A stretch of DNA of 64,000 bases from Bacillota bacterium (GCA_021768085.1 JAETOJ010000013.1:2448-66447); one strand, 5' to 3'; shown: positions 3,636 to 55,120, counted from the first letter of the stretch. The notes: generated by a model from the letters alone, not told the origin. Numbers and translations: made by a program.

Positions 3636-3672
3636 TGTTCTGTTCCTCCTGATTTTATATTGGGAGCGGCCA

Positions 3673-4919: not shown

Positions 4920-4931
4920 TGGCCCGGCACC

Positions 4932-5760: not shown

Positions 5761-5789
5761 TTGACTTTTCCCTCCAGTTGAATTAAAAT
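5761..5789 (+). promoter_or_regulatory. SigA-type promoter
   Basis: TTGACT-17 bp-TAAAAT. Confidence 0.6.
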
Positions 5790-5988
5790 CAAATGCCGCG
5801 GTCTGCTAATCGGGTTCTCAGGCGGACGGCGGTTTCGGGTGTGCCTGGCGGTTTTTCCGCCTGCGGAGGAGAGATCAAAGAAAAGCGCCGCGTAGTTCGG
5901 CGCTTTTTCCCTGTGCGGCGGTGGGGCTGAGGAAAGACTTGGATCGAGCCGTTCGGAACAGAGCGGACGGGAGGGGAGGGTCAAAGGC

Positions 5989-6507
5989 GTGACGGCACTT
6001 TACGGCACAAGGGGAGAGGACGGCAGACGGTTGGCCTGGCCTCTGTTGGCGTGGGCGGCCCGGGATTGCTGGGGATGGCCGTCCCTGCCCCCGGTGGAGC
6101 GTTCCCCCCGGGGCAAGCCCTTCTTTCCGGTGACGGAGAACCGGTGGTTTTCGCTGTCCCACAGCGGGGGATTGGCTCTGTGTGCACTGTCCGATGACGG
6201 CCCGGTGGGGGCGGACATAGAGCTGGAGCGCCCCCGAAGGGCGAACCTGCCCGCCTATGCCCTTAGCCCCAGTGAGCTGGCCAGGTTTGACGGAAGCTGG
6301 GCGGCGTTCTTCCGGCTGTGGACGCTGAAGGAGAGCTGGTGCAAACGGGAAGATACCCCCCTGTTCCCCCCCAGCCAGGTGGAGACGCCGCCTCCATGCC
6401 CCTACAAAAGCTACGCCGGAGCGGGCTGGCAGGGGGCGATCTGCTGTTCCGGGCTGCCGCCGGAGGAGATCCGCTGGGTGGCAGCGGAGATCTTAAAGGA
6501 TTCTTAA
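5989..6507 (+). CDS. 4'-phosphopantetheinyl transferase (short Sfp/Gsp-like)
   Basis: GKPF, FSLSHSGG, VGADIE and WTLKESWCK motifs. Confidence 0.85.
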   Translation: MTALYGTRGEDGRRLAWPLLAWAARDCWGWPSLPPVERSPRGKPFFPVTENRWFSLSHSGGLALCALSDDGPVGADIELERPRRANLPAYALSPSELARFDGSWAAFFRLWTLKESWCKREDTPLFPPSQVETPPPCPYKSYAGAGWQGAICCSGLPPEEIRWVAAEILKDS

Positions 6508-6541
6508 AAAAGTTCTCACCAAAAGCTAAAGGTGATCTCCC

Positions 6542-6569
6542 TTGAAACTGAAGATTTGTCCTTTATAAT
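6542..6569 (+). promoter_or_regulatory. SigA-type promoter
   Basis: TTGAAA-16 bp-TATAAT. Confidence 0.55.
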
Positions 6570-6766
6570 TGGAAACAGTAGGATAAGAAGTGGCAAATTC
6601 CACCCCGCGGCGTTTGCTGCGCCGGGAAAACGGCAATGCTTTCCTGTATGGCGGGAGCCCCGGGAAGGGCTGACAGCGGCTGCGGGGGAGGAGACACAGC
6701 GGGGAGGTCCCCGGGCCTGCGCCGCCCGTGGGCGTGGCTTGTGTGGACGACAGGAGGGAGATCTTC

Positions 6767-7837
6767 GTGAAGATTTTGATTTTAACCGGGAAATTCGGCA
6801 TGGGACATTTGTCCGCCGCCCAGGCGCTGCAGGAGCAGCTCCGGCAGGCGGGCCACCGGGCCGACACCGTGGATCTGTTTGAATACGCCCTGCCCGGCCG
6901 GGCGGCCGCCATGTACTGGTGGTTCAACGTGCTGGTGACCTACGGCGGCGTGTTCTACAATATCTACCATGACCTGACGGTCAACGACCCCGGGGACAGC
7001 CGGGGGGACGAGCTGCTGGGCGGCCTGGATCGCCTGCTGGACGAGTATGCCCCCGACGTGGTGGTGTCCACCCACCCCATCTGCTCCGCAGCCATGGCCC
7101 GGTACAAGGAGGACGGCCCCTCCGGCATCCCCCTGGTCACCTGCGTCACCGACGTGACCTGCCACAGCGAGTGGATCCACCCCGGCACCGACTGCTACCT
7201 GGTGGCAGGGGAGAGCGTCCGGCGGGGACTGGCCGCCAAGGGTGTGGATCCGGACACCGTGGTGGTGTCCGGCATCCCGGTGAGCGGAAGGTTCCGGCCC
7301 GCCCCGCGGGATCGCTCCGGGCGGCGGGAGCTGTTGATCATGGGCGGCGGCCTGGGCCTGATGCCCCGGCGGGACTCCTTCTATCAGGGGCTGGACACCC
7401 TGCCTGGGGTGCATACCACCATCCTCACGGGGAAGAACGAGAAGCTGTACCAGCGCCTCCACGGCCGGTATGAGAACATCGAGGCCGTCCCCTTCACCCG
7501 GGAGGTGGAAAAGTACATGGCCCGGGCCCACCTGATGCTGTCCAAGCCCGGGGGGATCACCTGCTTCGAGGCCATCGCCGCCCGCCTGCCCATTCTGGCG
7601 TGGCAGCCTTTCCTGAAGCAAGAGCAGGAAAACGCTGACTTCCTGGTGAGCCACGGCATGGCCCGCATCGCCGCCAAGGAGGAGGCCGCCTGCCTGGCCG
7701 CCATCCGGGAGACGATCTACGACGATAAGGCCCTGTCCGCCATGGAGCGGGCCATGGAACAGACCTCCAACCAGCTGACCCGGGCCGCGGTCTGCCGGGT
7801 GGTGGACGAGCTGGCGGGAGAGAGGGTGTCCGCGTGA
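6767..7837 (+). CDS. MGDG synthase / UgtP-like diacylglycerol glycosyltransferase (GT28)
   Basis: GKFGMGHLSAAQAL, VVSTHP, VTCVTD, SGIPVS and KPGGITCFEA motifs; GTG at 6767 after AGGAGG. Confidence 0.88.
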   Translation: MKILILTGKFGMGHLSAAQALQEQLRQAGHRADTVDLFEYALPGRAAAMYWWFNVLVTYGGVFYNIYHDLTVNDPGDSRGDELLGGLDRLLDEYAPDVVVSTHPICSAAMARYKEDGPSGIPLVTCVTDVTCHSEWIHPGTDCYLVAGESVRRGLAAKGVDPDTVVVSGIPVSGRFRPAPRDRSGRRELLIMGGGLGLMPRRDSFYQGLDTLPGVHTTILTGKNEKLYQRLHGRYENIEAVPFTREVEKYMARAHLMLSKPGGITCFEAIAARLPILAWQPFLKQEQENADFLVSHGMARIAAKEEAACLAAIRETIYDDKALSAMERAMEQTSNQLTRAAVCRVVDELAGERVSA

Positions 7838-8952
7838 AAAAGCAACTGAAAAACTTTCTGTGCATGGGGGCGGTGCTGGCCCTGCTGGGCTGGACGGTGC
7901 ACACCATCCTGAAGCAGCAGACCCCGGGCCAGCTCGCCGACGCCCTGCTCAGCGCGGATGGCTGGATGCTGCTGCTGGGCTTGCCGCTGATGGCCTTGTT
8001 CCTGTGCTGCGAGGCCGCCGCCACCTATGCCATCCTGCGCTCCCTGGGCTGCGGCCAGCCCTTCCGCCGCTGCGCCTACTACTCCTGCACCGGTTTCTTT
8101 TTCAGCACCATCACCCCCTCCGCCACCGGCGGGCAGCCCGCCCAGATCCTGGCCATGGGTAAGGACGGGGTGCCCACCGCCTCCGGCGCGCTGGATATGC
8201 TGCTGGTCACCATCGGCTACAACACCGCCGCCATGGGCTGGGGAATCTTCGCCCTGGCCACTGCCGGCAGCTTCACCGAGCAGCTGGGCGGCCAGGTGGG
8301 GCTGCTGCTGGGGGTGGGCCTGGCGGTGTTCGCCCTCATTGACGCGGCCATGTTGATGTTCTTGTTCCTCCCCGGCCCCGCCCGTCGGCTGCTGTACGGC
8401 TGCATCGCCCTGGCGGTACGGCTATGCCCCCGCCTGGACAAGGCGGCGCTGGAGGCCAAGGCTGACGCCCACATCGCCGAGTACCGCCGGGGAGCCCAGC
8501 TCATCCGGAAGGCCCCCGGCCTGCTGGCCTGGGTGCTGGGGCTCAGCGCCCTTCAGCTGGCTTGTTCCTATGCCATGCCCTATGTGGTGTACCGGGCCTT
8601 CGGGTTGTCCGGCTTCTCCCTGGGGCAGGCCGTCGCCCTCCAGGCCCTGTGCTCCCTGGCGGTGGGCTACCTGCCCCTGCCCGGATCCGCCGGGGCGGCG
8701 GAGAACGTCTTTCTGCGGAGCTTCCTGCTGATCTTTGGGGAGGGGCTGGTGGCCCCCGCCATGATTTTAAGCCGCACCCTGAACTGCTATCTGGTGCTCA
8801 TTGCCACCGCCGTGGTGCTGCTGGTGGGCCGCACGCTGCGCAGCCGCCGGATCGTCCGGGCGACCGCTCCCGAGGCCGAACCCGCCGCCCCCAAGAGTTC
8901 CGCGGTGAAGCGGGCGGCGCCCCCGGTCAAGGGCTGCCCCGACCGTGTCTAA
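7834..8952 (+). CDS. Lysylphosphatidylglycerol-synthase TM domain / UPF0104 flippase-like membrane protein
   Basis: GFFFSTITPSATGGQP and LPLPGSAGAAE motifs, multiple TM helices; overlaps the upstream stop codon. Confidence 0.82.
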   Translation: MKKQLKNFLCMGAVLALLGWTVHTILKQQTPGQLADALLSADGWMLLLGLPLMALFLCCEAAATYAILRSLGCGQPFRRCAYYSCTGFFFSTITPSATGGQPAQILAMGKDGVPTASGALDMLLVTIGYNTAAMGWGIFALATAGSFTEQLGGQVGLLLGVGLAVFALIDAAMLMFLFLPGPARRLLYGCIALAVRLCPRLDKAALEAKADAHIAEYRRGAQLIRKAPGLLAWVLGLSALQLACSYAMPYVVYRAFGLSGFSLGQAVALQALCSLAVGYLPLPGSAGAAENVFLRSFLLIFGEGLVAPAMILSRTLNCYLVLIATAVVLLVGRTLRSRRIVRATAPEAEPAAPKSSAVKRAAPPVKGCPDRV

Positions 8953-8970
8953 GCGGAAAGGAGTGAAACC

Positions 8971-9192
8971 ATGGCGAAAAAAGCCGCTGCGGGGATGTTC
9001 GCGATATTGCTCGCCGCCCTTCTGATCCCCATCCCCAACCATTTGAAGGATGGGGGCACCGTTCAATACCGTGCGGTTCTCTACAGCGTGGAAAAACTCC
9101 ATAAGCTGAACCCGCCGGGCTCCCAGTCGGAGTATCAAAAGGGGACGGTGGTGGAGATCCTGGGGATCGAGGTTTTTAACAATACAAAATAG
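8971..9192 (+). CDS. Small hypothetical membrane-anchored protein
   Basis: AAAGGAG RBS; N-terminal hydrophobic stretch then IPIPNHLKDGGTVQYRAVLY. Confidence 0.65.
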   Translation: MAKKAAAGMFAILLAALLIPIPNHLKDGGTVQYRAVLYSVEKLHKLNPPGSQSEYQKGTVVEILGIEVFNNTK

Positions 9193-9269
9193 GTGTCATT
9201 TCCCTGGCCCCTTCCGCATATACTGATTTGTATGGGCAAACTGTATGTGCAGAAAAAGGAGCGATTCTG

Positions 9270-9371
9270 ATGAAGAAAGACAAACGGTTTCAGTCCCCCG
9301 GCAATCCGCCCCAGGACGTGGACGACCTGATCTTCTCCGGGCAGACCGACGCCCGGATCAGCCAGCGGTAA
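9270..9371 (+). CDS. Candidate 33-aa small protein (MKKDKRFQSPGNPPQDVDDLIFSGQTDARISQR), below the ORF-track cutoff
   Basis: AAAGGAG RBS, own promoter-like motif upstream and a terminator directly downstream. Confidence 0.5.
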   Translation: MKKDKRFQSPGNPPQDVDDLIFSGQTDARISQR

Positions 9372-9380
9372 ACCGCCGTC

Positions 9381-9412
9381 GCCCCGCCCCGGTCTGGGGC
9401 GGGGCGGTTTTT
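9381..9412 (+). terminator. Intrinsic terminator
   Basis: gccccgcccc-ggtct-ggggcggggc followed by ggttttt. Confidence 0.65.
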
Positions 9413-9417
9413 CCCGC

Positions 9418-9446
9418 TTGACATTTTTCGGGCCGGGTGATATACT
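9418..9446 (+). promoter_or_regulatory. SigA promoter of the thrS leader
   Basis: TTGACA-17 bp-TATACT. Confidence 0.85.
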
Positions 9447-9451
9447 GCACC

Positions 9452-9697
9452 TGTCAAACCGGCACTGACGGAGAAGAAACCGCAAAGCGGCGCACAGAGA
9501 GGGACGCGCATTGGTGGAAGCGCCCCGCGCAAGGCGGCGGCCGTACCACTCCCGAGCCGCCCGCGAGGAGCGGGACGGGGCCTTCCCGTTACAGAAGGAC
9601 ACAAAGCGGCGGTCGCAGATCGCAAGCAGGGTGGAACCGTGGGACGGATAATCGCGTCTCACCCCTGAACTTCATCAGGGGTGAGGCGTTTTTGTTT
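9452..9697 (+). ncRNA. T-box riboswitch (Thr specifier)
   Basis: AGAGAG and GGTGGAAG stem I motifs; probable ACC specifier at 9545-9547; T-box AAGCAGGGTGGAACCGTG at 9624-9641; terminator cgtctcacccctga...tcaggggtgaggcg-ttttt; upstream of thrS. Confidence 0.9.
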
Positions 9698-9722
9698 TAC
9701 CCCAACACAAGGAGGAATCATC

Positions 9723-11483
9723 ATGAGCGAGGAAAACAATCTGTATACGTTTGAAAACGAGGCGTACCGCAAAACCTATTGGCACACCTGCTCCCACGTG
9801 CTGGCCCAAGCCATGAAGCGGCTCCACCCGGAGGTGAAGCTGGCCATCGGCCCGTCCATCGACAACGGCTTCTATTACGACTTCGACACCCCCGAGCCCT
9901 TCACTGAGGGCCAGTTGGCGGAGCTGGAGGCGGAAATGCGCAAGATCTGCAAGGAGAAGCTGAAGCTGGAGCGGTTCGAGCTGCCCCGGGCGGAGGCTGT
10001 CCAGTTCATGGAGGAGAAAGGCGAGCCCTACAAGGTGGAGCTGATCCACGACCTGCCCGAGGACGCGGTGATCTCCTTCTACAAGCAGGGCGACTTTACC
10101 GACCTGTGCGCCGGCCCCCACCTGGACTCCACCGGGCGGATCAAGGGCAACGCCATCAAACTCACCGCCTGCAATGCTGCCTACTGGCGGGGGGACTCCA
10201 GCCGGCAGACCCTCCAGCGGATCTACGGCGTGGCTTTCCCTAAGAAAGAGGAGCTGGACGAGTATCTGGCCAAAATTGAGGAGGCTAAGAAGCGGGATCA
10301 CCGCAAGCTGGGCAAGGAGCTGGGCCTGTTCATGTTTCGGGACGAGGGCCCCGGTTTCCCCTTCTTCCTGCCCAAGGGCATGGTGCTGAAAAACACCCTC
10401 ATCGACTACTGGCGGCAGGTTCACAAGAAGTACGGCTATGTGGAGATCTCCACCCCCATCATGCTCAACCGGCAGCTCTGGGAGCGCTCCGGCCACTGGG
10501 ATCACTATAAGAACAATATGTACACCACCGTCATCGACGACGTGGACTTCGCCGTCAAGCCCATGAACTGCCCTGGCGGGATGCTGGTGTACGCCAGCGA
10601 GCCCCACTCCTACAAGGAGCTGCCCCTGCGGGTGGCGGAGCTGGGCCTGGTTCACCGCCACGAGCTGTCCGGTGCACTTCACGGCCTGTTCCGGGTACGC
10701 TGCTTCACCCAGGACGATGCCCACGTGTTCATGACCCAGGATCAGATGAAGGATGTGATCCAGGAGACGGTGCGCCTGTTCGATGAGGTATACAACGTAT
10801 TCGACCTGAGTTACGAGATCGAGCTGTCCACCATGCCGGAGGATCACATCGGCACCGTGGAGGAGTGGGAACGCAACCAGGACATCCTCAAGGACGCGAT
10901 TACCAGCATGGGTAAGAAGTTCGTCATCAACGAGGGGGACGGGGCGTTCTACGGGCCCAAGCTGGACTTCCATCTGGCCGACTCCCTGGGGCACACCTGG
11001 CAGTGCGGCACCATCCAGCTGGACAGCCAGCTGCCCGAGCGGTTCGAGCTGGAGTATACCGGCGAGGACGGCCAGAAGCACCGCCCCGTCATGATCCACC
11101 GTGTGGTGCTGGGCTCCATCGAGCGGTTTATTGGCAGCATCACCGAGCACTTCGCCGGGGCCTTCCCGGTGTGGCTGGCCCCGGTGCAGGTGAAGGTGCT
11201 GCCCGTCACCGACCGGGCGGAGGAGTATGCCAAGGAAGTGGCCGCCAAGCTGGAGGCCCAGGGCTTCCGCTGCGAGGTGGACGAGCGCAATGAGAAGATC
11301 GGCAAGAAGATCCGGGAGGCCACCCTGGAAAAGGTGCCCTTCATGCTGGTGGTGGGCGACCGGGACATGGAGAACGGCACCGTTTCCCCCCGCCGCCGCT
11401 CCGGCGAGGATCTGGGTGCCATGGCGCTGGACGCCTTCGCCGCCCTGTTGGGGGACGAGGTGTCCTCCAAAGCCATCAAATAA
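9723..11483 (+). CDS. thrS: Threonine--tRNA ligase
   Basis: HTCSHVLAQA, DLCAGPH, RDHRKLG, KPMNCP, GLFRVRCFTQDDAH, AFYGPKLD and GSIERF motifs. Confidence 0.98.
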   Translation: MSEENNLYTFENEAYRKTYWHTCSHVLAQAMKRLHPEVKLAIGPSIDNGFYYDFDTPEPFTEGQLAELEAEMRKICKEKLKLERFELPRAEAVQFMEEKGEPYKVELIHDLPEDAVISFYKQGDFTDLCAGPHLDSTGRIKGNAIKLTACNAAYWRGDSSRQTLQRIYGVAFPKKEELDEYLAKIEEAKKRDHRKLGKELGLFMFRDEGPGFPFFLPKGMVLKNTLIDYWRQVHKKYGYVEISTPIMLNRQLWERSGHWDHYKNNMYTTVIDDVDFAVKPMNCPGGMLVYASEPHSYKELPLRVAELGLVHRHELSGALHGLFRVRCFTQDDAHVFMTQDQMKDVIQETVRLFDEVYNVFDLSYEIELSTMPEDHIGTVEEWERNQDILKDAITSMGKKFVINEGDGAFYGPKLDFHLADSLGHTWQCGTIQLDSQLPERFELEYTGEDGQKHRPVMIHRVVLGSIERFIGSITEHFAGAFPVWLAPVQVKVLPVTDRAEEYAKEVAAKLEAQGFRCEVDERNEKIGKKIREATLEKVPFMLVVGDRDMENGTVSPRRRSGEDLGAMALDAFAALLGDEVSSKAIK

Positions 11484-45712: not shown

Positions 45713-46810
45713 TTGGAACTGACCCTGCAATCCCAACATGAATACGACAAGCTCCGATCCGGAGAGATGACCCCGGCCATGGCGGCGGAGTACCTCCGGG
45801 ACGGGAAGATCCGCACCCGGGGATTCGCCGAAACTCTGCGGCAGCTCTGCCCGGAGGGCAACCTCCAGGCCCGGATCACCGCCGCCCTCCAGGAGGACGA
45901 GCCGGAGGCCAACCCGGAATCGGTGGCCCGCCGGGTACGCAACTGGCTGTCCGGCCAGAACCAGCCCGTCAACCGGGAGGACATCTTCCGCATTGCCTTT
46001 GCCCTGGGGCTGAGCGAGGGGGACGCCAGCCTGCTGCTGGGGCTGTGCACGGGCTACGGCATCCATTACCGGGACGGCCGGGACGTGGTGTACGCCTGGT
46101 TTTTGCGGATGGGGCGGAGCTATGCCCAGGCCCGGGACTTCTTCGCCGATCTGCCCCCGGTGCCCAGGCCGGACAGCCCTCCGGAAACGGTGTCCAGCCA
46201 ACTGACCCACGAGCTGCAAAACCTCTTTCTGCGGGCCCAGACCCAGGAGGATCTGCGGGAGTGCTACATCGCCAGCCTGGACAAGCTGGGGGCGCTGCAT
46301 ATGCGGGCCTACTTCTACTTTGAGAAATACCTGGATCAGTTGGTGCGCCCAGCCCCCGCCTGGGGAGGCCTGCGGGAGCCGGACTACTCCATGGAGGCCA
46401 TCATGCGGCAGTATTTCTCCCTCCATATGCCCTCCGGCCGGAACCGGCAGGGCTATTCCGTGGTCCAGAAGCTGATCAAGCAGAACTGGCCCAACGCCAC
46501 CGCCCTAAAGAACATCCGCCAGCATAAGGAGGACGTGACCCGAAAGCTGCTCCTGCTGCTATACGTGGTGACGGAGAACGTGGTGGACGGGGAGTACCAT
46601 GAGATAGACGAGGAATACGTCAGCGCCCAGGAGCGGCTGGAGGATCACTGGTGGACGCTGAACGCCATTTTGAACGACTGCGGCATGCCCGCCCTGGATC
46701 TGCGCAACAGCTTCGACTGGCTGGTGGTGTACGCCATCACCGCCGAGGACGAGGCCATGAGCGAGCGGATGGAGCGGGTGATCGACGAGCTGTTTTCCGA
46801 TGTGAGATAA
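45713..46810 (+). CDS. Hypothetical protein with probable HTH-like DNA-binding region
   Basis: SVARRVRNWLSGQNQPVNREDIFRIAFALGL resembles an XRE-type HTH; codon style matches host genes; own terminator. Confidence 0.7.
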   Translation: MELTLQSQHEYDKLRSGEMTPAMAAEYLRDGKIRTRGFAETLRQLCPEGNLQARITAALQEDEPEANPESVARRVRNWLSGQNQPVNREDIFRIAFALGLSEGDASLLLGLCTGYGIHYRDGRDVVYAWFLRMGRSYAQARDFFADLPPVPRPDSPPETVSSQLTHELQNLFLRAQTQEDLRECYIASLDKLGALHMRAYFYFEKYLDQLVRPAPAWGGLREPDYSMEAIMRQYFSLHMPSGRNRQGYSVVQKLIKQNWPNATALKNIRQHKEDVTRKLLLLLYVVTENVVDGEYHEIDEEYVSAQERLEDHWWTLNAILNDCGMPALDLRNSFDWLVVYAITAEDEAMSERMERVIDELFSDVR

Positions 46811-46884: not shown

Positions 46885-47568
46885 TCATGCCGGAGGATAC
46901 TCCGTGCACAGCAGCCGGTAGGGGGGCTCGTCCTCCTCAATGACGGGGAACCGGCCCACAGGCGGGTTGAAGCGGTTGTCCGTGTTGTCGTCGTTGCACT
47001 GGCTCACCTCGCCGATGAGTACGTTGCCGGTGCCGGGCTCCACCTGGAAGTCGTGGTAGAGCCGGGGCTGAATGGAGATGCTCATGCCCGGCTCCAGCCG
47101 GAGCTGAGTGCCCGCCGGCACGGTGCGAACACAGCCGTCCAGATGAACCGTAACCTCACTCTCCCGGTCGATCTCCTCGTCGGTCAGGGAGTTGAACACC
47201 CGGATCAGCAGCACGCCGCCCCCACGGTTGATGATGTCCTCCATTTTGTACCAATGGAAGTGGTTGGGGGAATACTGGCCCTCCTTCAGAAACAGCAGCT
47301 TCTCTGCATAGGGCTTCCGGTACTTATCCGCCAATTTCAGGTTGCCGTTGCGCAGGGTGATCAGGGAGAAGCCCACCTCGTCAAAGCGGCCCAGGCCGTA
47401 GTCCGTGATGTCCCAGCCCAGCATATTGTCCCGAACCTCGTCATATTCGTGACCCTTGTGGGCCCAGTCCTCCGGCGTGAAGCGGCAGAAGGGGGGCAGG
47501 GCGAACCGGCAGTCCCGGATCATCCCCTCCATCTCCCGGAGGGCGGCGTTGATCTCGCTTCGTTTCAT
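46885..47568 (-). CDS. D-lyxose/D-mannose family sugar isomerase (cupin)
   Basis: MKRSEIN, GWDITDYG, YAEKLL, PNHFHWYKMEDIINRGGG, GEVSQCNDDNTDNRF motifs. Confidence 0.88.
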   Translation of the reverse strand: MKRSEINAALREMEGMIRDCRFALPPFCRFTPEDWAHKGHEYDEVRDNMLGWDITDYGLGRFDEVGFSLITLRNGNLKLADKYRKPYAEKLLFLKEGQYSPNHFHWYKMEDIINRGGGVLLIRVFNSLTDEEIDRESEVTVHLDGCVRTVPAGTQLRLEPGMSISIQPRLYHDFQVEPGTGNVLIGEVSQCNDDNTDNRFNPPVGRFPVIEEDEPPYRLLCTEYPPA

Positions 47569-47593
47569 CGTGTCAACCTTCCTTTCCGGCGGC

Positions 47594-48043
47594 TCACAGC
47601 CTGAATTTGACCACGGCCCGGCTCACCGGCATGGCCTCCCCCAGCTGCACCTTGACCATGTGGGCGTCCTCGGGGAATACGATGAGCACATCGTCCGCCG
47701 CCATGGAGTACCAGCTGCGCACCGGGCCCTCAAAGCCCAGGAAGTCCTCATCGTCCTTTCGGACAGTCTGGGTCAGCTCCGAGGCGTCGGACACGCCGAT
47801 CCGCTCCTGCCCCGTGATCATGATGTGGATGTCGCCATAGTGGGCATGGCCCTCCCAGGCGGCCTGTTTCTCCGGAATGGTGGTGTAGTCCAGCCGGTTG
47901 ATGTAGACGTTGTCGCCGTCCACCTCGTTGCGGCCCGGGGCCAGGCTGGCCAGATCTGCCTGGGCCAGGTGCCGGATGGCGGTGTCCAGGGCGGGGCACA
48001 GGCCCAGGTAGCGATCCAGGTGCGCGCGCTTCACATAGATCAT
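47594..48043 (-). CDS. YhcH/YjgK/YiaL family protein (NanQ-like)
   Basis: WEGHAHYGDIH and FPEDAHM motifs. Confidence 0.88.
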   Translation of the reverse strand: MIYVKRAHLDRYLGLCPALDTAIRHLAQADLASLAPGRNEVDGDNVYINRLDYTTIPEKQAAWEGHAHYGDIHIMITGQERIGVSDASELTQTVRKDDEDFLGFEGPVRSWYSMAADDVLIVFPEDAHMVKVQLGEAMPVSRAVVKFRL

Positions 48044-48247
48044 GGAAAAATTCTCCCTTCTTGACAGCGCGGCCCATGCCGGAAGGCGGTTTTGCCCCGG
48101 CAGATCCGCGGATTTCCATAAAAGGATAGCACAGTTTTCTCCGATTTTCAATAGCTTGCGGCACCGGATCCCGGTTGAGGTGAAAAGAAGTGCACAAGAG
48201 AGGGAGGGTACCCAACGGCAGAACTTGTAGAAAAAGTAAAATAATGT

Positions 48248-48276
48248 TTGACACTATGCGCAATATGGTGTATGAT
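48248..48276 (+). promoter_or_regulatory. SigA promoter of the Opp-type/NanA operon
   Basis: TTGACA-17 bp-TATGAT. Confidence 0.8.
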
Positions 48277-48379
48277 GAATACGTTGAGAGGCCGTTCTTT
48301 GGTGAAGTTGCCAAGAACGTCGGCCATCTCCTCTGACGGCTCAGGCCGCCACACGGAAAACCATAAGGAGGAAGAATTG

Positions 48380-50032
48380 ATGAAAAGAATTGCGTCTCTG
48401 CTGCTCGCCCTGTGCATGGTGCTTGCGCTGTGCGCCTGCGGCGGCACCCCCAGCGGCAACAACCCCAGCAATCCGCCGGCAAACAACAGCCAGTCCGGCG
48501 GGCAGCCCTCCGGCAATGAGGGCGTGGGCGGCACCGCCTACCCCAACCCCCTCCAGGACGTGCGCGTCCGTCAGGCCCTGTGGTATGCCATTGACATGGA
48601 CGCCATTGTGGACGGTCTGTGGAGCAACACCGTCATCGCCGCCCACAAGTCCCTGGTGCCTGAGGGCGCCTGGCAGGCGGACGGCCTAACCGAGTACAAG
48701 TACGACCCCGAGAAGGCCAAGGAACTGCTGGCTGAGGCGGGCTGGGACGGCAGCTACACCCTGAAGGCCGTCTACTACACCGGCAACCTGCTGGACACCA
48801 TCACCGCCATCAAGGGCTATTGGGAGGCCGTGGGTGTGAAGATGGAGTTCGATCTCCTCACCGACAACCTGACGGTTCTGCTGTGGACTCCCTCCCCCGA
48901 CGGCGTCAAGTCCGGTGTTGACTGGGATCTGTGCTTCGCGGGCACTAACGCCCTGACCCTGGGCGAGCTCTACAACCGCCACCACTCCACCGCCAACAAC
49001 AACTCCACCGTGCTGTGGGACAAGGATCTGGACGCCCTCATCGACAAGGCCAAGGTAGCGGTGACCACCGAGGATCAGAAGGCGGCCTACGACGCCATCC
49101 AGAAGTACGAGAACGAGAACGTGGAGACCATCCCCCTGTTCTACATCCCCTCCTGGATCATCACCTCCAAGCATCTGGACATGAAGGGCAACGCCCCCGG
49201 CAACGATCAGTTCTGCTATCAGAAGAACATTCTGGACTGGACCATCGACCGCGCCGACAAAACCATGTACACCAACACGGGCGCTGTCAATGCCCTGGAG
49301 CACACCGCCACCAACCCCGGCCTGTTCTGGCACCAGGAGATCGTGTTTGACCGTTTGCTGAACGCCGACACCAGCCTGACCGCCTCCGACGGGATGCTGG
49401 CCGAGAGCTATGACGTGTCCGATGACGGCAAGGTCATCACCTTCAAGCTCCGCGAGGGCGTGAAGTGGCACGACGGCGAGCCCTTTACTGCCGAGGATGT
49501 GAAGTGGACCTTCGAGTACTACTGCACCGTACCTGGCGCCAACACTGTGCTGACCGACGTCATTAACGATGCCTCCTCCATCGAGGTGGATGGGAACACC
49601 GTCACCTTCACCTTCAACAACCCGCAGCCCAACGCCCTGACTGTGTTCTCCCAGTGGTCCGTGCTGCCCAAGCACTGCCTGGAGAATGTGACCCCGGAGA
49701 ACTTCGCCGCCGACACCTTCTGGCAGAATCCCATCGGCACCGGCCCGTTCAAGGTGGAGAGCGTCAAGCTGGGCGAGTATACCACCCTGGTGCGCAACAA
49801 CGACTACTTCAAGCCTGGCACCGGCAATATCGAGAAGATCTATATGTATCCGTCCAGCGACGCGGGCGATGAAAACCTCATCACCAACGCCATGGCCGAC
49901 AAAATTGACTACGCCTTCTGTAAGGATTCCTCCCAGGTGCAGCAGGTGCAGGATATGGCCGGCTTCAATGTGGACACCGTCAATGTGACCTTCCCGCGGT
50001 ACATCTTCCTCAATATGTTTGAGCGCAGCTAA
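48380..50032 (+). CDS. Family 5 (Opp/Dpp-type) ABC solute-binding lipoprotein, circularly permuted
   Basis: Lipobox LALCAC; DVRVRQAL..AID and YDPEKAKELLAEAG come before LAESYDVSDDGKVITFKLREGVKWHDG and PIGTGPF. Confidence 0.88.
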   Translation: MKRIASLLLALCMVLALCACGGTPSGNNPSNPPANNSQSGGQPSGNEGVGGTAYPNPLQDVRVRQALWYAIDMDAIVDGLWSNTVIAAHKSLVPEGAWQADGLTEYKYDPEKAKELLAEAGWDGSYTLKAVYYTGNLLDTITAIKGYWEAVGVKMEFDLLTDNLTVLLWTPSPDGVKSGVDWDLCFAGTNALTLGELYNRHHSTANNNSTVLWDKDLDALIDKAKVAVTTEDQKAAYDAIQKYENENVETIPLFYIPSWIITSKHLDMKGNAPGNDQFCYQKNILDWTIDRADKTMYTNTGAVNALEHTATNPGLFWHQEIVFDRLLNADTSLTASDGMLAESYDVSDDGKVITFKLREGVKWHDGEPFTAEDVKWTFEYYCTVPGANTVLTDVINDASSIEVDGNTVTFTFNNPQPNALTVFSQWSVLPKHCLENVTPENFAADTFWQNPIGTGPFKVESVKLGEYTTLVRNNDYFKPGTGNIEKIYMYPSSDAGDENLITNAMADKIDYAFCKDSSQVQQVQDMAGFNVDTVNVTFPRYIFLNMFERS

Positions 50033-50051
50033 GTGACCTTGATGTGAAACG

Positions 50052-50082
50052 CACGGGGGCCGGCGTTTTGCCGGCCCCCGTG
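50052..50082 (+). terminator. Hairpin after the SBP gene
   Basis: cacgggggccggc-gtttt-gccggcccccgtg. Confidence 0.65.
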
Positions 50083-50138
50083 ATGTACTTCACAATGTAA
50101 ATTTTTAGAAAAGAAAGTTGGAGGAAAGGGGCGGTTCC

Positions 50139-51089
50139 ATGCTGAATTTTACACTGCGCAAGCTGATCGGAATGATTCCCATGCTGATCATCATCACCTT
50201 TCTGATCTACTGGGGGATCGAGCTGATGCCTGGCGACGTCATCGACTTTCTGATCCCCATGGATCAGCTGGCGGAAATGTCGGCGGAGGAAATCGCCGCC
50301 TTCAAGGCGGCCAAGGGGCTGGATGGCCCCATGATCGTCCGGTACCTGAGCTGGCTCAAGGACGTGTGTACCGGAAACCTGGGCTTTTCCCTGCAGAACA
50401 ATATGCCCGTGAGCGAGCTGATGATGCAGAAGCTGCCCGCCACCATTGAGCTGTCCCTGGCGGCGCTGGTGATCTCCACCGTGCTGGGCATCCTCCTGGG
50501 CGTAGTCTCCGCCCTGAAAAAGGGGAAGATCGCCGATAATGTGCTGACCGTGGCCGGCATGATCGGCGTGGCCATCCCCCAGTTCCTGTTTGGTATCTTC
50601 TGCATTATCCTGTTCTGCCTGACGCTGAACTGGTTCCCGGTGGGCCAGCGGGGGGACGGCGGGCTGCTCAGCGAGCTGCATCACCTGTTCTTACCCGCCT
50701 TTGTGCTGGGCATCTCCCAGACGGCGGGCGTCATGCGGTACTCCCGCTCCAGTATGCTGGACTCCATGAACCGGGACTATGTAAAGACCGCCCGGGCCAA
50801 GGGCCTGCCGGAGTGGAAGGTCAATATGTACCACGGCTTCCGTGTGGCCTGTACGCCCGTGATGGTGCTGATCGGTTTCCGTCTGCCCACCCTGATCAGC
50901 GGCGCCATCGTGATTGAGAACATTTTCCAGTGGCCCGGCGTGGGCCGTTGGTTTACCGACGCGATCAAGACCCAGAATACCCCCATCATTATGTCGGTTG
51001 GTTTATTTATGGTGCTGATGGTGCTGTTGTCCTCCCTGCTGGTGGACATCCTCACCGCAGTGCTCGACCCGAGGGTGAAGCTATCATGA
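50139..51089 (+). CDS. Opp/Dpp-type ABC permease (OppB-like)
   Basis: GNLGFS, PATIEL, DYVKTARAKGL, FQWPGVG, DPRVK motifs. Confidence 0.92.
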   Translation: MLNFTLRKLIGMIPMLIIITFLIYWGIELMPGDVIDFLIPMDQLAEMSAEEIAAFKAAKGLDGPMIVRYLSWLKDVCTGNLGFSLQNNMPVSELMMQKLPATIELSLAALVISTVLGILLGVVSALKKGKIADNVLTVAGMIGVAIPQFLFGIFCIILFCLTLNWFPVGQRGDGGLLSELHHLFLPAFVLGISQTAGVMRYSRSSMLDSMNRDYVKTARAKGLPEWKVNMYHGFRVACTPVMVLIGFRLPTLISGAIVIENIFQWPGVGRWFTDAIKTQNTPIIMSVGLFMVLMVLLSSLLVDILTAVLDPRVKLS

Positions 51090-52024
51090 ACATGAAAACG
51101 AAAAAAACGGCCCTTGACCGCAAGCTGGACAAAATTCGGGTTGCGGAAGAAAGCGGAAAGCTGGGCACCAAGCTGACCAACCGGACGCTGCGCAAGCTGA
51201 CGTCCAACAAGCTGGCGGTCTTCGGTGCGATCCTGTTTGTGGTGATCTGCGTGCTGTGCTTTGGCGCTCCCCTGTTCACCAGGTATTCCCCCACGGAGTT
51301 CTCCCTGACGGAGATCCAGGCGAAGCCCTCCCTGGCCCACATCTTCGGCACCGATCAGATGGGCCGGGATATCTGGAGTCGTATGCTCTACGGCGGCCGG
51401 ATCAGTATCATCGTCGGCCTGGGCAGCGCTCTGGGCGCCGCCCTGCTGGGGGTCACCCTGGGGATGTACGTGGGCTACCTGGGCGGATGGGTGGACAAGA
51501 TTTTGATGAAGCTCGCGGATATCTTCATGTCCATCCCCCAGATGGTGATGATCATCATCATCGTGGCCCTGGTGGGCCAAAGCCTGCAAAACCTGATCAT
51601 CATCTTTATCCTCACCGGCTGGCCCTCCATGTACCGTATGGCCCGGAGCAAGGTGCTCTCCCTCCGGGAGGAGGAATTCGTCCAGTCCCTGCGGGCCTTC
51701 GGCATCTCCCGGACGAAGATCGCCTTCAAGCATATGCTGCCCAACGCCCTGGGCCCCATTGTGGTGAACATCACCCTGTCCACCGCCATGTTCATCCTTC
51801 AGGAGGCGTCCCTGTCCGTGCTGAACTACGGCGTGCCCATGGAGCTGGCCACCTGGGGCAATATTATCAGCGTGATTACCAACTCTGGCACCATCCGGTT
51901 CGACTGGCTGGACAAGTGGTGGATGTGGCTGCCCTGCTCCATCATGCTGATCCTGTTTGTGCTGTCCATCAACTTCATCGGGGATGGTATGCGGGACGCG
52001 TCCGATCCCACCCAGATCGGCTGA
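51086..52024 (+). CDS. Opp/Dpp-type ABC permease (OppC-like)
   Basis: HIFGTDQMGRDIWSRMLYGGRISI; EEFVQSLRAFG; HMLPN motifs. Confidence 0.92.
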   Translation: MNMKTKKTALDRKLDKIRVAEESGKLGTKLTNRTLRKLTSNKLAVFGAILFVVICVLCFGAPLFTRYSPTEFSLTEIQAKPSLAHIFGTDQMGRDIWSRMLYGGRISIIVGLGSALGAALLGVTLGMYVGYLGGWVDKILMKLADIFMSIPQMVMIIIIVALVGQSLQNLIIIFILTGWPSMYRMARSKVLSLREEEFVQSLRAFGISRTKIAFKHMLPNALGPIVVNITLSTAMFILQEASLSVLNYGVPMELATWGNIISVITNSGTIRFDWLDKWWMWLPCSIMLILFVLSINFIGDGMRDASDPTQIG

Positions 52025-52037
52025 GAGGTGAACGAAT

Positions 52038-53063
52038 ATGAGTGAAAGCCAGAACAACGTCGTATTGAGCGTGAAGGATCTGCACGTCTATTTCTACACC
52101 AACCAGCGGTGCAACAAGGTGCTGCGGGGGGTCAGCTTCGACGTGAAGCGGGGCCGGACGCTGTGCATCGTGGGCGAGTCCGGCTGCGGCAAGTCGGTGA
52201 CCGCTAACTCCATCCTGCGCCTGCTGCCTGAACTGAGCCGCATTGAGGAGGGCTCCATCACCTACTACAAGGAGGATGGCACTGAGATCCGCCTGGATCA
52301 GCTGGAGAAGAACGGCAAGGAGATGCGCGCCATTCGAGGCCAGGACATCGCCATCATCTTCCAGGATCCCATGACCGCCCTGAACCCGGTGTTCACCGTG
52401 GGCTACCAGATTGAGGAGATGCTCCGCCAGCACAAGCCGGGGCTGTCCAAGGAGCAGTACAAGAAGGAGGCCATTGAGGATCTGGCCGACATGGGCATCC
52501 CCGCCCCAGACATCCGGTACGGCGAGTATCCCCACCAGTTCTCCGGCGGGATGCGGCAGCGCTCCATGATCGCCATGGGTATGTCCTGCGACCCCAAGAT
52601 CCTGTTGGCCGACGAGCCCACCACCGCTCTGGATGTGACCATCAGCGCTCAGATCTTCGACCTGATGAACGACCTGAAGCGGGAGCATGACACCGCCATC
52701 ATGATGATCACCCACAACATGGGCGTAGTGGCCGAGATGGCCGACGAGGTGGCCGTCATGTATATGGGCAACATCGTGGAGTACGGCCCGGTGGAGGACA
52801 TCTTCACCAACCCGGCCCACCCCTATACCAAGGCGCTGCTGCGCTCCATCCCCGTGCTGGGCAAGGGCAAGAATCAGCAGCTGGAGCCCATCCGGGGCTC
52901 CACGCCCGACCCCTTCAACCGCCCCAAGGGCTGCCAGTTCTGCCCCCGGTGCGACTATGCCTGCCCCCGCTGCGAGGAGGAGATGCCCGACGAGGAGTGG
53001 GTCAAGGAGGGGCACTATACCCGCTGCTTCAACTACAGGGAGGTGATGGCAGATGGCAAATAA
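52038..53063 (+). CDS. Opp/Dpp-type ABC ATPase (OppD-like)
   Basis: GESGCGKS, YPHQFSGGMRQR, DEPTTALD, HPYT, C-terminal Cys cluster. Confidence 0.94.
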   Translation: MSESQNNVVLSVKDLHVYFYTNQRCNKVLRGVSFDVKRGRTLCIVGESGCGKSVTANSILRLLPELSRIEEGSITYYKEDGTEIRLDQLEKNGKEMRAIRGQDIAIIFQDPMTALNPVFTVGYQIEEMLRQHKPGLSKEQYKKEAIEDLADMGIPAPDIRYGEYPHQFSGGMRQRSMIAMGMSCDPKILLADEPTTALDVTISAQIFDLMNDLKREHDTAIMMITHNMGVVAEMADEVAVMYMGNIVEYGPVEDIFTNPAHPYTKALLRSIPVLGKGKNQQLEPIRGSTPDPFNRPKGCQFCPRCDYACPRCEEEMPDEEWVKEGHYTRCFNYREVMADGK

Positions 53064-54102
53064 CGAGAAGGAGATCCTGCTGAAGGTGCGGGGGGCCAAG
53101 ACCTATTTCCCCATCAAGAAGGGCCTGATGAAGCGCACGGTGGGCTATGTGAAGGCGGTGGACGATATCAGCCTGGACGTGTACCGGGGCGAGACCCTGG
53201 GCCTGGTGGGCGAGTCCGGCTGCGGCAAGACCACCCTGGGCAAGTCCATCCTCCAGCTGGTGCCCGTCACCGAGGGCAGCATGGAGTATAAGTTTGAGGA
53301 CGGCTTCAAGGATCTGCGCAAGCTGCCCCGGAAGGAGCTGGATGACGCCCGGCAGAAGATCCAGATTGTGTTCCAGGACCCCTACTCCTCCCTGAACCCG
53401 GCCTTTACCATCTTCGGCTCCCTGGAGGATCCGCTGATCAAGTTCGGCATGAAGGATAAGCAGGAGCGAATCAAGAAGATCGGCGATCTGCTGGAGTCCG
53501 TCAACCTGCCTCGGGACTACATGACTCGTTATCCCAACGAGTTTTCCGGCGGACAGCGCCAGCGTATCGGCATTGCCCGGGCGCTGTCCGTGGGGCCGGA
53601 GCTCATCATTTGCGACGAGGCCGTGTCCGCTCTGGACGTGTCCATCCAGGCCCAGGTGCTGCGGCTGCTGAACCAGCTGAAGGAAGAATACAAGCTGACC
53701 TACATCTTCATCACCCACGACCTGTCGGTGGTGGAATACCTGGCCGACCGGATCGCGGTGATGTACCTGGGGCGCATTGTGGAGCTGACCACCTCGGAGG
53801 AGCTGTTCGCCAACACCCTGCACCCCTACACCAAGGCCCTGCTCAGCGCCATCCCCGTGGCCGATGTGGCCCAGAAGAAGCACCGCATCCCCCTCCAGGG
53901 GGACGTGCCCTCTCCGGCCAATCCGCCGTCTGGCTGCACCTTCCACCCCCGCTGTCCGGAGTGCCAGGAGCGGTGCAAGAACGAGCGGCCCGTGCTGGAG
54001 GAATATATCATTGACGGCGTTAGCCACTTTGTCTCCTGCCACAAGGTAAAGGAGATGATGGAGGCAAAGGGCGCGGTGAAAAAGGAGAGCGTATCAGAAT
54101 GA
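53053..54102 (+). CDS. Opp/Dpp-type ABC ATPase (OppF-like)
   Basis: GESGCGKT, YPNEFSGGQRQR, DEAVSALD, PSGCTFHPRC motifs. Confidence 0.94.
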   Translation: MANNEKEILLKVRGAKTYFPIKKGLMKRTVGYVKAVDDISLDVYRGETLGLVGESGCGKTTLGKSILQLVPVTEGSMEYKFEDGFKDLRKLPRKELDDARQKIQIVFQDPYSSLNPAFTIFGSLEDPLIKFGMKDKQERIKKIGDLLESVNLPRDYMTRYPNEFSGGQRQRIGIARALSVGPELIICDEAVSALDVSIQAQVLRLLNQLKEEYKLTYIFITHDLSVVEYLADRIAVMYLGRIVELTTSEELFANTLHPYTKALLSAIPVADVAQKKHRIPLQGDVPSPANPPSGCTFHPRCPECQERCKNERPVLEEYIIDGVSHFVSCHKVKEMMEAKGAVKKESVSE

Positions 54103-55034
54103 GTCGTGATATCCGTGATTTCAAGGGCGTGATCCCGGCGGTTCTGTCCATCTTTGACCAGGACGAGAACCTGGACGAGGCGGGCACCCGGGACTTTATC
54201 CGCTACCTGCTGTCCTTTGATATCGGGGGGCTGTACCTCACCGGATCCACCGGCGAGACCTTCTTGATGAATTCCGAGGAGCGGATGCACCAGGTGGAGA
54301 TTGTGATGGAGGAGGTGGGCGACAAGGTTCCGGTGGTGGTGCATGTGGGCGCCATGTCCACCCGGGCCTCCATCGAGCTGGCCAAGCACGCCGAACAGTG
54401 CGGTGCGGCAGGCATATCCAGCGTGCCCCCCTTCTACTTCAAGTTTAATGAGGATCAGATCTTCCACTACTATGAGGATCTGGCGGGCTCTACCAGCCTG
54501 CCCATGATCGTCTACAACATCCCCCTGGCGGGGCTGATGACGGTGGAACAGGTCATCCGTCTGTCGGAGATTGAGAACGTCAAGGGTGTGAAGTACACTG
54601 CTACCGCCCTCTACGAGGTGCCCCTGATCCGGGAGAGCTGCAAGCCCGGGTTCCAGATCTACGGCGGCTGCGACGAGCTGGGCAGCTCCAACATCGCCCT
54701 GGGGGTGGATGGGATCATCGGCTCGTTCTACAATGTGATTCCGGATCTCTACCTGAAGATCTGGCAGGCGGTGAAGGCATCCGACGTATCCACTGCCGCC
54801 CAGCTTCAGGGCAAGGCGGTGCACATCATCATGGCGGGTCTTCACAGCGGCAGCATGATGGCCTGCATCAAGGTGTGGCTGCGTGGGGGCGGCGTGCCAG
54901 CTGGGTACGCCAGAAGGCCCTTCTCCAACTTTACGCCGGAGGAGGAGCGGAAGCTGTTGGATGAGCTATGCGCCATTGATGAGACGGACGGGCTGGGCCT
55001 GGATATTGTCCGGCGGATCAAGGCCCGCGCATAA
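54099..55034 (+). CDS. N-acetylneuraminate lyase-like aldolase (DHDPS/NanA family)
   Basis: GLYLTGSTGE (NAL-type Ser rather than the DHDPS GTTGE), VYNIP, Schiff-base GVKYT. Confidence 0.8.
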   Translation: MSRDIRDFKGVIPAVLSIFDQDENLDEAGTRDFIRYLLSFDIGGLYLTGSTGETFLMNSEERMHQVEIVMEEVGDKVPVVVHVGAMSTRASIELAKHAEQCGAAGISSVPPFYFKFNEDQIFHYYEDLAGSTSLPMIVYNIPLAGLMTVEQVIRLSEIENVKGVKYTATALYEVPLIRESCKPGFQIYGGCDELGSSNIALGVDGIIGSFYNVIPDLYLKIWQAVKASDVSTAAQLQGKAVHIIMAGLHSGSMMACIKVWLRGGGVPAGYARRPFSNFTPEEERKLLDELCAIDETDGLGLDIVRRIKARA

Positions 55035-55080: not shown

Positions 55081-55120
55081 CATGCGAAAAAGTCTGCCCT
55101 CGGGCAGACTTTTTTGCATG
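55081..55120. terminator. Long inverted repeat / terminator after the lyase gene
   Basis: catgcgaaaaagtctgccc-tc-gggcagacttttttgcatg. Confidence 0.75.

Follow-up and report, generated by a model that had tools for sequence, protein, structure and literature searches.

The window analyzed here, a stretch of 64,000 nucleotides, comes from the MAG (90.6% complete) of a gut Oscillospiraceae bacterium, and its positions 46885-55034 hold eight genes arranged in two divergent sets. On the minus strand lie lyxI (46885..47568; PF07385), which encodes a predicted D-lyxose/D-mannose isomerase of the cupin type with 227 aa, and a yhcH-like gene (47594..48043; PF04074) for a DUF386 protein of 149 aa, whose start was set to the Met at the beginning of the Pfam match. 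The plus-strand set encodes an Opp-type ABC importer and then a NanA-like lyase. It begins with a family-5 (Opp/Dpp/Nik-type) SBP lipoprotein of 550 aa (48380..50032; SBP_bac_5) and an OppB-type permease of 323 aa (50118..51089; BPD_transp_1 and BPD_transp_1_N, Opp/Nik B models), followed by an OppC-type permease (51086..52024; OppC_N and BPD_transp_1) whose start, taken from the translation, overlaps the preceding permease stop by 4 nt. Two ATPases with ABC_tran and oligo_HPY domains come next, one OppD-type (52038..53063; 341 aa) and one OppF-type (53053..54102; 349 aa), and the set ends with a NAL-like class I aldolase of 311 aa (54099..55034; PF00701). All the genes named in the sequence-only reading (NanA-like lyase, Opp-type ABC, YhcH and D-lyxose/D-mannose isomerase) were recovered where it had placed them.

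The genes of the importer and the lyase overlap or abut, the lyase start overlapping the stop of the OppF-type ATPase gene, and a terminator-like hairpin with a T-run stands 3' of the lyase gene (55092..55115, +). On the opposite strand, only 25 nt separate the yhcH stop from the lyxI start downstream, and the two genes probably form a single operon. The divergent control region (48044..48379) contains a sigma-70-like TTGACA-17-TATGAT site (11/12) at 48248-48276 (+), 5' of the SBP gene, and a weaker promoter-like site at 48151-48123 (-), 5' of yhcH; together with the gene spacing and the terminator, this region points to a two-operon pattern. None of nanE, nanK, nagA and nagB is present inside the cluster (46885-55034), as the sequence-only reading had said of the first two. 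The same interval has no KDNase, regulator or kinase gene, which counts against the proposal, made in that reading, that the cluster serves the breakdown of KDN.

The window lyase matches PF00701 at 7e-71, and its best curated model is that of N-acetylneuraminate lyase, NF003164, at 246.9 bits, below the cut-off of 281; against TIGR00683 it reaches 207.6, also below the cut-off of 382. NanA2, a lyase encoded on contig C72 of the same genome and 32.5% identical to it, likewise falls below the NAL equivalog cut-offs. The top ~30 solved matches of the window lyase are all N-acetylneuraminate lyases (NanA; best E 1e-47), and the protein carries the motifs GSTGE, YNIP, VKYT with the Schiff-base lysine, and GCDE. 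Its VKGVKYT and VYNIP stretches align to the lysine and tyrosine of S. aureus NanA, so that the Schiff-base lysine (E. coli K165) and the catalytic Tyr137 within Y-N-I-P are both in place, as are the carboxylate-binding G-S-T/S-G-E motif and the sugar-binding G-x-D-E motif, the latter of which we take to be NAL-specific. An unusual GSFYN replaces the classical GSTYN, and this change is common to the lyases of the related loci L088, L090 and G691. Judged by these features, the enzyme looks like a NAL-like lyase of the sialic acid type. One residue has reportedly been linked to Kdn specificity in a study of a Sphingobacterium aldolase. The window lyase has the classical NAL motifs, and its sequence shows no recognizable KDN signature. 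The window lyase is also closer than NanA2 to characterized Neu5Ac lyases, which speaks against KDN and for an ordinary second system for Neu5Ac (or O-acetyl- or N-glycolyl-sialic acid), whose ManNAc would be finished by AGE, glucokinase, NagA and NagB encoded elsewhere.

The lyxI product covers PF07385 over its full length (328 bits, 2e-98, positions 1-222 of 222) and matches the D-lyxose isomerase of E. coli O157 (3KMH) with an E value of 3e-60; the HFHW..K.EDIINRGGG and LYH stretches, where we presume the cupin metal ligands to lie, are conserved in this alignment. Its score against the equivalog NF051472, a model built for Gram-negative enzymes, is 253.2 and below the cut-off of 350. The gene is present as a single copy in the host genome. 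LmuI of the E. coli O157 island OI-167 (3KMH), which belongs to the same Pfam family, supports growth of EHEC on mannose and lyxose brought in by an ABC importer (PMC10128022). However, LmuI is accompanied by a monosaccharide importer, a kinase and an FBP-type aldolase, whereas the partners of the window lyxI are YhcH and the sialic-type lyase. The yhcH product belongs to the DUF386 family (PF04074, 113 bits, 1.6e-32) and resembles the Neu5Ac anomerase NanQ (YhcH) of E. coli in family and in its setting in a lyase cluster, but stays below the cut-off of the NanQ equivalog NF040884 (69.9 versus 160); among solved structures it matches 9JRR (DUF386) alone, with an E value of 7e-10.

The SBP has its two SBP_bac_5 halves in swapped order, a circular permutation, and aligns in this swapped order with the non-permuted SBPs of the related genomes G691, G199, G094 and G630 at 37-38% identity. 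Among solved proteins it comes closest to those of the Nik/Dpp type (1e-30) and to the agropinic-acid binder AgaA, while the H. ducreyi SatA structures (5Z99, 5ZA4, 5YYB) give a weak partial match (E 1e-14). PMC8461474 describes the ST3 system SatABCD as a sialic acid ABC transporter of Haemophilus ducreyi, Corynebacterium and Bifidobacterium; neither its ST3 section nor a word search of its main text yields a mention of Clostridia, the group of the window host. As in ST3, the window encodes a family-5 SBP-dependent ABC importer beside a sialic acid lyase. However, SatC is a permease-ATPase fusion, whereas the window has four separate permease and ATPase genes, and in view of the missing fusion and the partial match of a permuted SBP to SatA, we rejected an assignment to ST3. 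The affinity of the SBP to Nik/Dpp-type proteins and AgaA rather than SatA, along with lyase and YhcH scores under the NanA and NanQ equivalog cut-offs, would suit the import of an opine, Amadori or peptide-like compound and a DHDPS-family enzyme whose substrate is a different 2-keto-3-deoxy acid. We regard this as very improbable: the lyase keeps the GxDE motif and has NanA proteins as its top ~30 solved matches, YhcH accompanies NAL-like lyases in all 29 typed clusters of the host's family, and orthologous importers are located in nan clusters with NagA, NagB and RpiR.

The assumption of a missing outlet for ManNAc proved wrong once the whole genome was considered. Contig C72 carries a complete AGE-RpiR-SBP_bac_1-permease-permease-NanA2-NagB-NagA cluster with CUT1-type permeases; this makes the window cluster a second system, and the separate Neu5Ac pathway makes another substrate plausible for it. 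A search of the genome (90.6% complete) gave no NanE (PF04131), and the sole ROK protein is glucokinase-like and lies in a glycogen cluster, so the kinase and the ManNAc-6-P epimerase of the canonical NanA-NanK-NanE pathway are both missing from what was searched. The Bacteroides-type (AGE) pathway, the route encoded on C72, consists of a NanL/NanA lyase, an N-acylglucosamine 2-epimerase, the RokA kinase, NagA and NagB. The window cluster shares with it a NAL-type lyase following the uptake of free sialic acid and the lack of NanE and NanK, but has no epimerase, deacetylase or deaminase and carries an aldose-ketose isomerase instead; moreover, its importer is Opp-type, in contrast to the SBP_bac_1/CUT1 importer of the AGE-type cluster on C72. 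An AGE epimerase is encoded elsewhere in all five genomes with a lyxI cluster, the host included, which suggests that ManNAc could be handled in trans, as a second Neu5Ac system would need. On that explanation lyxI would be a general free-mannose isomerase, either a mere neighbor or co-regulated on account of the common origin of sialic acid and mannose in host glycans. It fits less well that no mannose importer lies near the window cluster and that the window control region (48044..48379) lacks the candidate RpiR operator proposed for the C72 cluster.

The distribution of lyxI bears on this point. Among 400 genomes of the host's family, lyxI occurs in 91, DUF386 in 95 and NAL-like lyases in 172, and all 29 clusters combining yhcH with a lyase were typed. 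No lyxI lies within 10 kb of any of the 26 NanA2-type clusters, most of which also have AGE, RpiR or NagA/NagB, whereas all three clusters with a non-NanA2 lyase (the window, G691:C61 and G768:C3) contain lyxI and show no AGE, nagA or nagB in the DNA examined around them; Fisher's exact test gives ~3e-4 for this contrast, in which related genomes are not independent. A fourth case, the unrelated MAG L011, combines a lyase, a CUT1-type ABC importer, an FAD oxidoreductase, yhcH and lyxI, and in a related fifth cluster (G058) an Opp importer stands with yhcH and lyxI, a lyase not being found there. The linkage of lyxI, yhcH, lyase and ABC importer is thus seen in three lineages besides the window, with differing gene orders, such as the yhcH-X-lyase-lyxI run of G691 with a lyase-lyxI gap of 47 nt. 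In a tree of 84 lyxI sequences, 24 of which lie no more than 600 bp from a PfkB kinase gene, the cluster-linked copies fall at four separate places, each beside PfkB (fructokinase)-linked copies; as far as this tree can tell, they are independent recruits from a fructokinase-linked pool.

It seems, therefore, that lyxI beside the window lyase cluster is probably no chance neighbor, and the isomerase apparently serves a function in the cluster. The restriction of lyxI to clusters with a non-NanA2 lyase and without amino-sugar genes, together with its independent recruitment, supports a neutral aldose product such as mannose from KDN. A lyase cluster with a mannose-handling enzyme but no amino-sugar genes, recurring across lineages, is also the gene content expected of the proposed KDN system. 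A second Neu5Ac system leaves unexplained both this restriction and the at least four separate joinings of lyxI to lyase clusters with operon-tight spacing. On the other hand, the neighborhood of ~76 of the 80 closest lyxI loci contains no lyase, which agrees with a general mannose isomerase.

The nearest relatives of the module pull in more than one direction. These are L088 (lyase 80%, SBP 80%), L090 (73% and 77%) and L089, and none of the three has lyxI in the DNA examined (over ~8-10 kb on the assessable side for L088 and L090). Two CE7 acetyl-esterase genes accompany the module in L088 and in L090, the latter also having a nagB-like gene at a distance of two genes; a module of this content looks more like one for O-acetylated Neu5Ac. 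Furthermore, orthologous Opp importers (57-67% identical) are located inside NanA2/NagA/NagB clusters of G630, G199 and G094, and the SBP from the lyxI cluster of G691 shares 74-75% identity with those of G199 and G094, which lie with NanA2, NagA, NagB and RpiR, so this transporter family is not specific to KDN. Taking both sides together, a second Neu5Ac system is a serious contender, though we doubt that it is the correct account.

In the enlarged clusters of G691, G768, G058 and G630, an AspOx/fumarate-reductase-like flavoprotein gene directly follows that of the importer ATPase. G691 and G058 also encode an enzyme of the Gfo/Idh/MocA type, closest among solved structures to glucuronide-3-dehydrogenase 8TDI (E 1e-61 to 1e-66), G691 has two CE7 esterases, and in G058 a C-N hydrolase gene adjoins lyxI. 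The flavoprotein and Gfo/Idh/MocA enzymes hint at a modified substrate. Accordingly, the window could hold a trimmed version of these larger Opp-FAD-GFO-esterase clusters, acting on a modified or conjugated sialic-type compound (dehydrated, oxidized or a small glycoside) that would yield a neutral aldose by an undescribed route; the preference of Opp-type SBPs, which usually take ligands larger than a monosaccharide, would agree with this. We consider it unlikely, however, since the genome that carries the window lacks homologues of all three proteins (flavoprotein, GFO enzyme and CE7 esterase), the permuted SBP of the window belongs to a different group, and the chemistry is not yet assignable.

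KDN, the nitrogen-free sialic acid, has known routes of breakdown in other bacteria. E. coli NanA cleaves it, and KDN supports growth of E. coli through NanT and NanA (PMC13220900), while Sphingobacterium has a KDNase and a Kdn-specific aldolase (PMC10017367, PMC13220900). The window cluster would share with them the splitting of KDN into pyruvate and D-mannose by a NAL-family aldolase; a dedicated cluster of the aldolase with a mannose isomerase does not figure in the passages of these sources on the two KDN systems.

According to the above-described analysis, the part of the sequence-only reading that made the isomerase a working member of the cluster has gained from the tight yhcH-lyxI spacing, the recurrent linkage and the independent recruitment, while KDN as the substrate has lost ground to the classical NAL lyase, to L088 and L090 without lyxI, and to SBPs shared with NagA/NagB clusters. 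The gene content fits KDN breakdown without proving it, and for a KDN-like substrate we would put the chance a little short of even. The Opp-type importer with its permuted SBP lipoprotein would take up a free sialic-acid-type sugar acid, presumably set free by other members of the community (the host genome yielded no GH33 sialidase), and the YhcH-like protein may speed its ring opening or anomerization. The NAL-like lyase would then split the sugar acid into pyruvate and an aldose, which the presumably co-transcribed D-lyxose/D-mannose isomerase would convert to a ketose, and a PfkB kinase encoded elsewhere (C47, C20) could phosphorylate the ketose; type-I manA was not found in the genome. 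We infer that KDN (3-deoxy-D-glycero-D-galacto-nonulosonate) would be the natural substrate fitting these steps, passing through D-mannose and D-fructose to fructose-6-P. Tentatively, and with slightly more doubt than belief, we may therefore view the cluster as a second, non-canonical nonulosonate salvage system of this gut bacterium, from which the carbon skeleton would leave as a neutral hexose rather than an amino sugar.

The eight genes of the cluster span positions 46885 to 55034 exactly, as the sequence-only reading had described them, in a gut Oscillospiraceae MAG of 2.94 Mb (110 contigs, 90.6% complete). On the minus strand, the D-lyxose/D-mannose isomerase gene lyxI (46885-47568; PF07385, 328 bits, full length) is separated by 25 nt from a DUF386/YhcH-like gene (47594-48043, start set at the beginning of the Pfam match). 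Divergent from this pair, the plus strand carries a family-5 solute-binding lipoprotein (SBP, 48380-50032), two Opp-type permeases (50118-51089 and 51086-52024, the second start read from sequence), two Opp-type ATPases (52038-53063 and 53053-54102) and a DHDPS-family lyase (54099-55034), which overlaps the last ATPase by four bases. Given this gene order, a near-consensus sigma-70-like site upstream of the SBP gene (TTGACA-17-TATGAT, 48248-48276) and a hairpin with T-run at 55092, downstream of the lyase gene, the layout is that of two divergent operons, yhcH-lyxI and importer plus lyase. Convergent with lyxI lies a 365-aa ORF (45713-46810, plus strand) with no Pfam match, which is conserved (97%) in L005 and L086 alone, two contigs of the same lineage, and was not found in the congeners G080 and G183. 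By synteny comparison, neither congener has lyxI, the lyase or the flanking gene either, and both carry a dltA-like gene of just 44-45% identity whose neighbors are not shared.

The isomerase aligns end to end with 3KMH, the E. coli O157 D-lyxose isomerase structure (E 3e-60), with conserved HFHW..K.EDIINRGGG and LYH stretches. Because enzymes of this family act on D-lyxose and D-mannose, and KDN, a nitrogen-free sialic acid, is a natural nonulosonate giving D-mannose on aldol cleavage, KDN is the leading candidate substrate; Kdo yields D-arabinose, outside the substrate pattern of the family. The EHEC D-lyxose isomerase supports growth on both D-lyxose and D-mannose (PMC10128022), KDN is cleaved by the NanA of E. 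coli and supports growth of this species (PMC13220900), and Sphingobacterium has a Kdn-specific aldolase (PMC10017367).

By its sequence, the lyase looks like a classical N-acetylneuraminate lyase (NAL). That model is its best curated match (246.9 bits against a cut-off of 281), every one of its first 30 or so relatives of known structure is a NanA enzyme (E about 1e-47), and it retains the motifs GSTGE, YNIP, VKYT with the Schiff-base lysine, and GCDE; the sole distinctive change, GSFYN for GSTYN, is common to L088 and L090, two stretches from relatives, and to the genome G691. Such a classical look speaks against a clean KDN story and in favor of a second system for ordinary or O-acetylated Neu5Ac with a mannose isomerase merely co-located, an explanation that we regard as plausible, though less likely than KDN. 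Many relatives of the lyase exist at 76-94% identity; a strict-E-value search with the protein in 200 family and 400 class genomes matched the window alone, and this lyase type is rare among species representatives. The YhcH-like protein is a distant DUF386 member (NanQ equivalog score 69.9 versus 160) whose sole solved match is 9JRR.

The same organism has an ordinary Neu5Ac route on another contig, C72, where the pathway is complete and of the AGE type: N-acylglucosamine 2-epimerase (AGE), RpiR, SBP_bac_1, two CUT1 permeases, the lyase NanA2, NagB and NagA (2568-11072 of the stretch L003). Since the window lyase is only 32.5% identical to NanA2 and no GH33 sialidase was found in the source genome, the window cluster is an additional system, and the organism is a scavenger of free sugar acids. 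The lack of nanE and nanK, which the sequence-only reading had remarked on in the cluster, extends to the whole MAG (90.6% complete): NanE was not found, and the sole ROK protein is glucokinase-like and lies within a glycogen cluster. A type-I mannose-6-phosphate isomerase (manA) was not found in the source genome either, and two PfkB kinases, on contigs C47 and C20, are 41-42% identical to lyxI-linked kinases of other Clostridia. The C72 cluster itself has no yhcH gene. In most typed orthologues of the family, this gene is flanked by the second permease and NanA2. The genome has just two yhcH copies, that of the window and a paralogue on contig C4. In the C72 nan-cluster promoter regions, three exact or near copies of the palindrome GAAAATAATTTTC occur (L003 about 8850-8990 and 11150-11170), making up a candidate RpiR operator. 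This candidate operator, GAAAATNATTTTC, is absent from the window cluster, and no shared operator was found between the window control region and the C72 promoters; its absence argues weakly against co-regulation with the Neu5Ac pathway, and hence weakly against a second Neu5Ac system.

In 400 evenly drawn genomes of the family, lyxI, DUF386 and NAL-like lyases were located; they occur in 91, 95 and 172 genomes, respectively. All 29 clusters with yhcH beside a NAL-like lyase were typed. NanA2-type lyases occupy 26 of them; 23 of these clusters are ordinary, with SBP_bac_1 and CUT1 permeases and often AGE, RpiR, NagB or NagA (where the DNA sufficed), and the other three (G630, G199 and G094) have an Opp-type importer and RpiR, two of them also NagA or NagB. 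In no case among the 26 does lyxI lie within 10 kb, though nine of those genomes carry it elsewhere. The remaining three clusters, in the window, on G691 contig 61 and on G768 contig 3, have a different lyase, and all three combine it with an Opp-type importer and lyxI; AGE, nagA and nagB were not seen in any of them within the DNA covered. The contrast for lyxI (3/3 versus 0/26) gives about 3e-4 by Fisher's exact test, related genomes not being independent. Gene order differs in each case: in G691, yhcH, an unknown gene, the lyase and, 47 nt on, lyxI are all divergent from the importer, while in G768 lyxI faces a regulator-lyase-importer-flavoprotein-yhcH run. In a fifth genome, G058, a C-N hydrolase-lyxI pair converges on yhcH, a Gfo/Idh/MocA gene, a flavoprotein and an importer, and no lyase was found in this cluster.

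We also examined the neighbors of lyxI in the 80 genome loci whose lyxI is closest to that of the window (74-96% identical). The commonest neighbor of lyxI is a PfkB sugar kinase, adjoining it in 18 of the 80 loci by ORF clustering and lying within 600 bp in 24 of the 84 clostridial copies of the tree set (for example, L009 10588-11550); an aldose 1-epimerase adjoins it in 7 loci. This linkage suggests a route from mannose through fructose to fructose-6-phosphate that bypasses mannose-6-phosphate isomerase. YhcH and a NAL-like lyase are near lyxI in only 2 of the 80 loci, L005 from the same lineage and, picked up by an HMM rescan, L011 from an unrelated MAG, in which an FAD oxidoreductase-yhcH-lyxI run is faced by a CUT1-type importer and a lyase of another type. 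In the 84-protein tree, the cluster-linked copies occupy four distinct positions, with PfkB-linked copies next to them in every case. From these positions and the cluster typing, it follows that the same general mannose/lyxose isomerase was recruited repeatedly, and only into lyase clusters without amino-sugar genes, which is the strongest support for a neutral aldose as the lyase product. An AGE epimerase is present elsewhere in all five lyxI-cluster genomes, so that ManNAc could always be handled in trans, as the co-location explanation would have it. The isomerase as a substitute for the ManNAc epimerase was rejected, because AGE occurs in all these genomes and because cluster copies and fructokinase-linked copies belong to one and the same orthologue.

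The window SBP is circularly permuted. It has no close similarity to SatA, the family-5 protein known to bind sialic acid, which it matches only in part (E 1e-14, against 1e-30 for Nik/Dpp-type proteins). The SBPs form three groups: the permuted proteins of the window, L088 and L090 (the last two 77-80% identical to that of the window); the non-permuted proteins of G691, G199, G094 and G630; and those of G058 and G768. The non-permuted proteins (L100 6165-7952, minus; L126 12241-14052, plus; L129 4798-6633, minus; L124 6926-8782, minus) are 37-38% identical to the window SBP in two blocks of swapped order, which, with the shared permutation in L088 and L090, indicates that the permutation is real and confined to one clade of this sialic-cluster SBP family. 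Between the SBP of the G691 lyxI cluster and the SBPs of the G199 and G094 NagA/NagB clusters, identity is 74-75%; therefore, specificity for a nitrogen-free ligand is not a property of the importer family as a whole, another point on the side of a Neu5Ac system.

The same side is favored by the nearest relatives of the window module, L088 (lyase 80%, SBP 80%), L090 (73%, 77%) and L089, none of which has lyxI on the DNA covered. Two CE7 acetyl-esterases are encoded in L088 and two more in L090; those of L088 lie upstream of the SBP by BLAST, and in L090 a nagB-like gene stands two genes upstream. In L091 (2067-9105), a lyase 91% identical to that of the window is preceded by a different importer, whose ATPase has just 56% identity and whose putative SBP (599 aa) gives no Pfam hit, which suggests that the transporter was swapped ahead of the same lyase. 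Other relatives have an AspOx/fumarate-reductase-like flavoprotein directly after the Opp importer (L099 10447-19132; L100 422-7952 with L103 7480-10449; L101 6096-13898; L124 1073-8782). These clusters often include two CE7 esterases, yhcH and a Gfo/Idh/MocA enzyme whose best solved relative is the glucuronide-3-dehydrogenase 8TDI; this set of enzymes is undescribed and may act on a modified sialic acid. The additions point to modified substrates in the relatives, but the window genome has neither the flavoprotein nor the Gfo/Idh/MocA gene, and a modified substrate for the window cluster is unlikely.

Taken together, the data make it very probable that the isomerase works as part of a non-canonical cluster of the sialic type. 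The sequence-only reading, that the cluster may import and catabolize KDN or a related deaminated ulosonic acid and so feed fructose metabolism, is supported in part; as to the substrate, the most likely single reading is that the lyase releases a neutral aldose, mannose from KDN, with somewhat less than an even chance. In this scheme, the Opp-type importer with its permuted binding protein would take up KDN, the YhcH-assisted NAL-type lyase would cleave it and release mannose, and the isomerase would convert the mannose to fructose. It is conceivable, though less likely than not, that no KDN salvage pathway of gut Firmicutes was genetically defined before this one, and that its module came together on at least four independent occasions.

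No paper linking lyxose isomerase with sialic acid catabolism was found in the literature searched. In a transporter survey (PMC8461474), the main text does not mention the Oscillospiraceae-related names searched, and the ST3 section names only Actinobacteria and Pasteurellaceae. The split between lyxI-type and NagAB-type lyase clusters, like the variants of the relatives that combine Opp importer, flavoprotein and Gfo/Idh/MocA enzyme, is new and testable even if the substrate is Neu5Ac. If KDN or another nitrogen-free nonulosonate is the substrate, the Opp-type importer family in Clostridia would join the eight recognized sialic acid transporter families, and a NAL-like lyase with yhcH and lyxI, without nagA or nagB, would be a metagenome signature of the niche. 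Foraging for sialic acid influences which bacteria do well on the mucus of the gut, and nearly everything known about it concerns Neu5Ac; use of KDN or another nitrogen-free nonulosonate would mean that there is a second nutrient niche, which bacterial surface polymers bearing KDN, or the diet, might supply.
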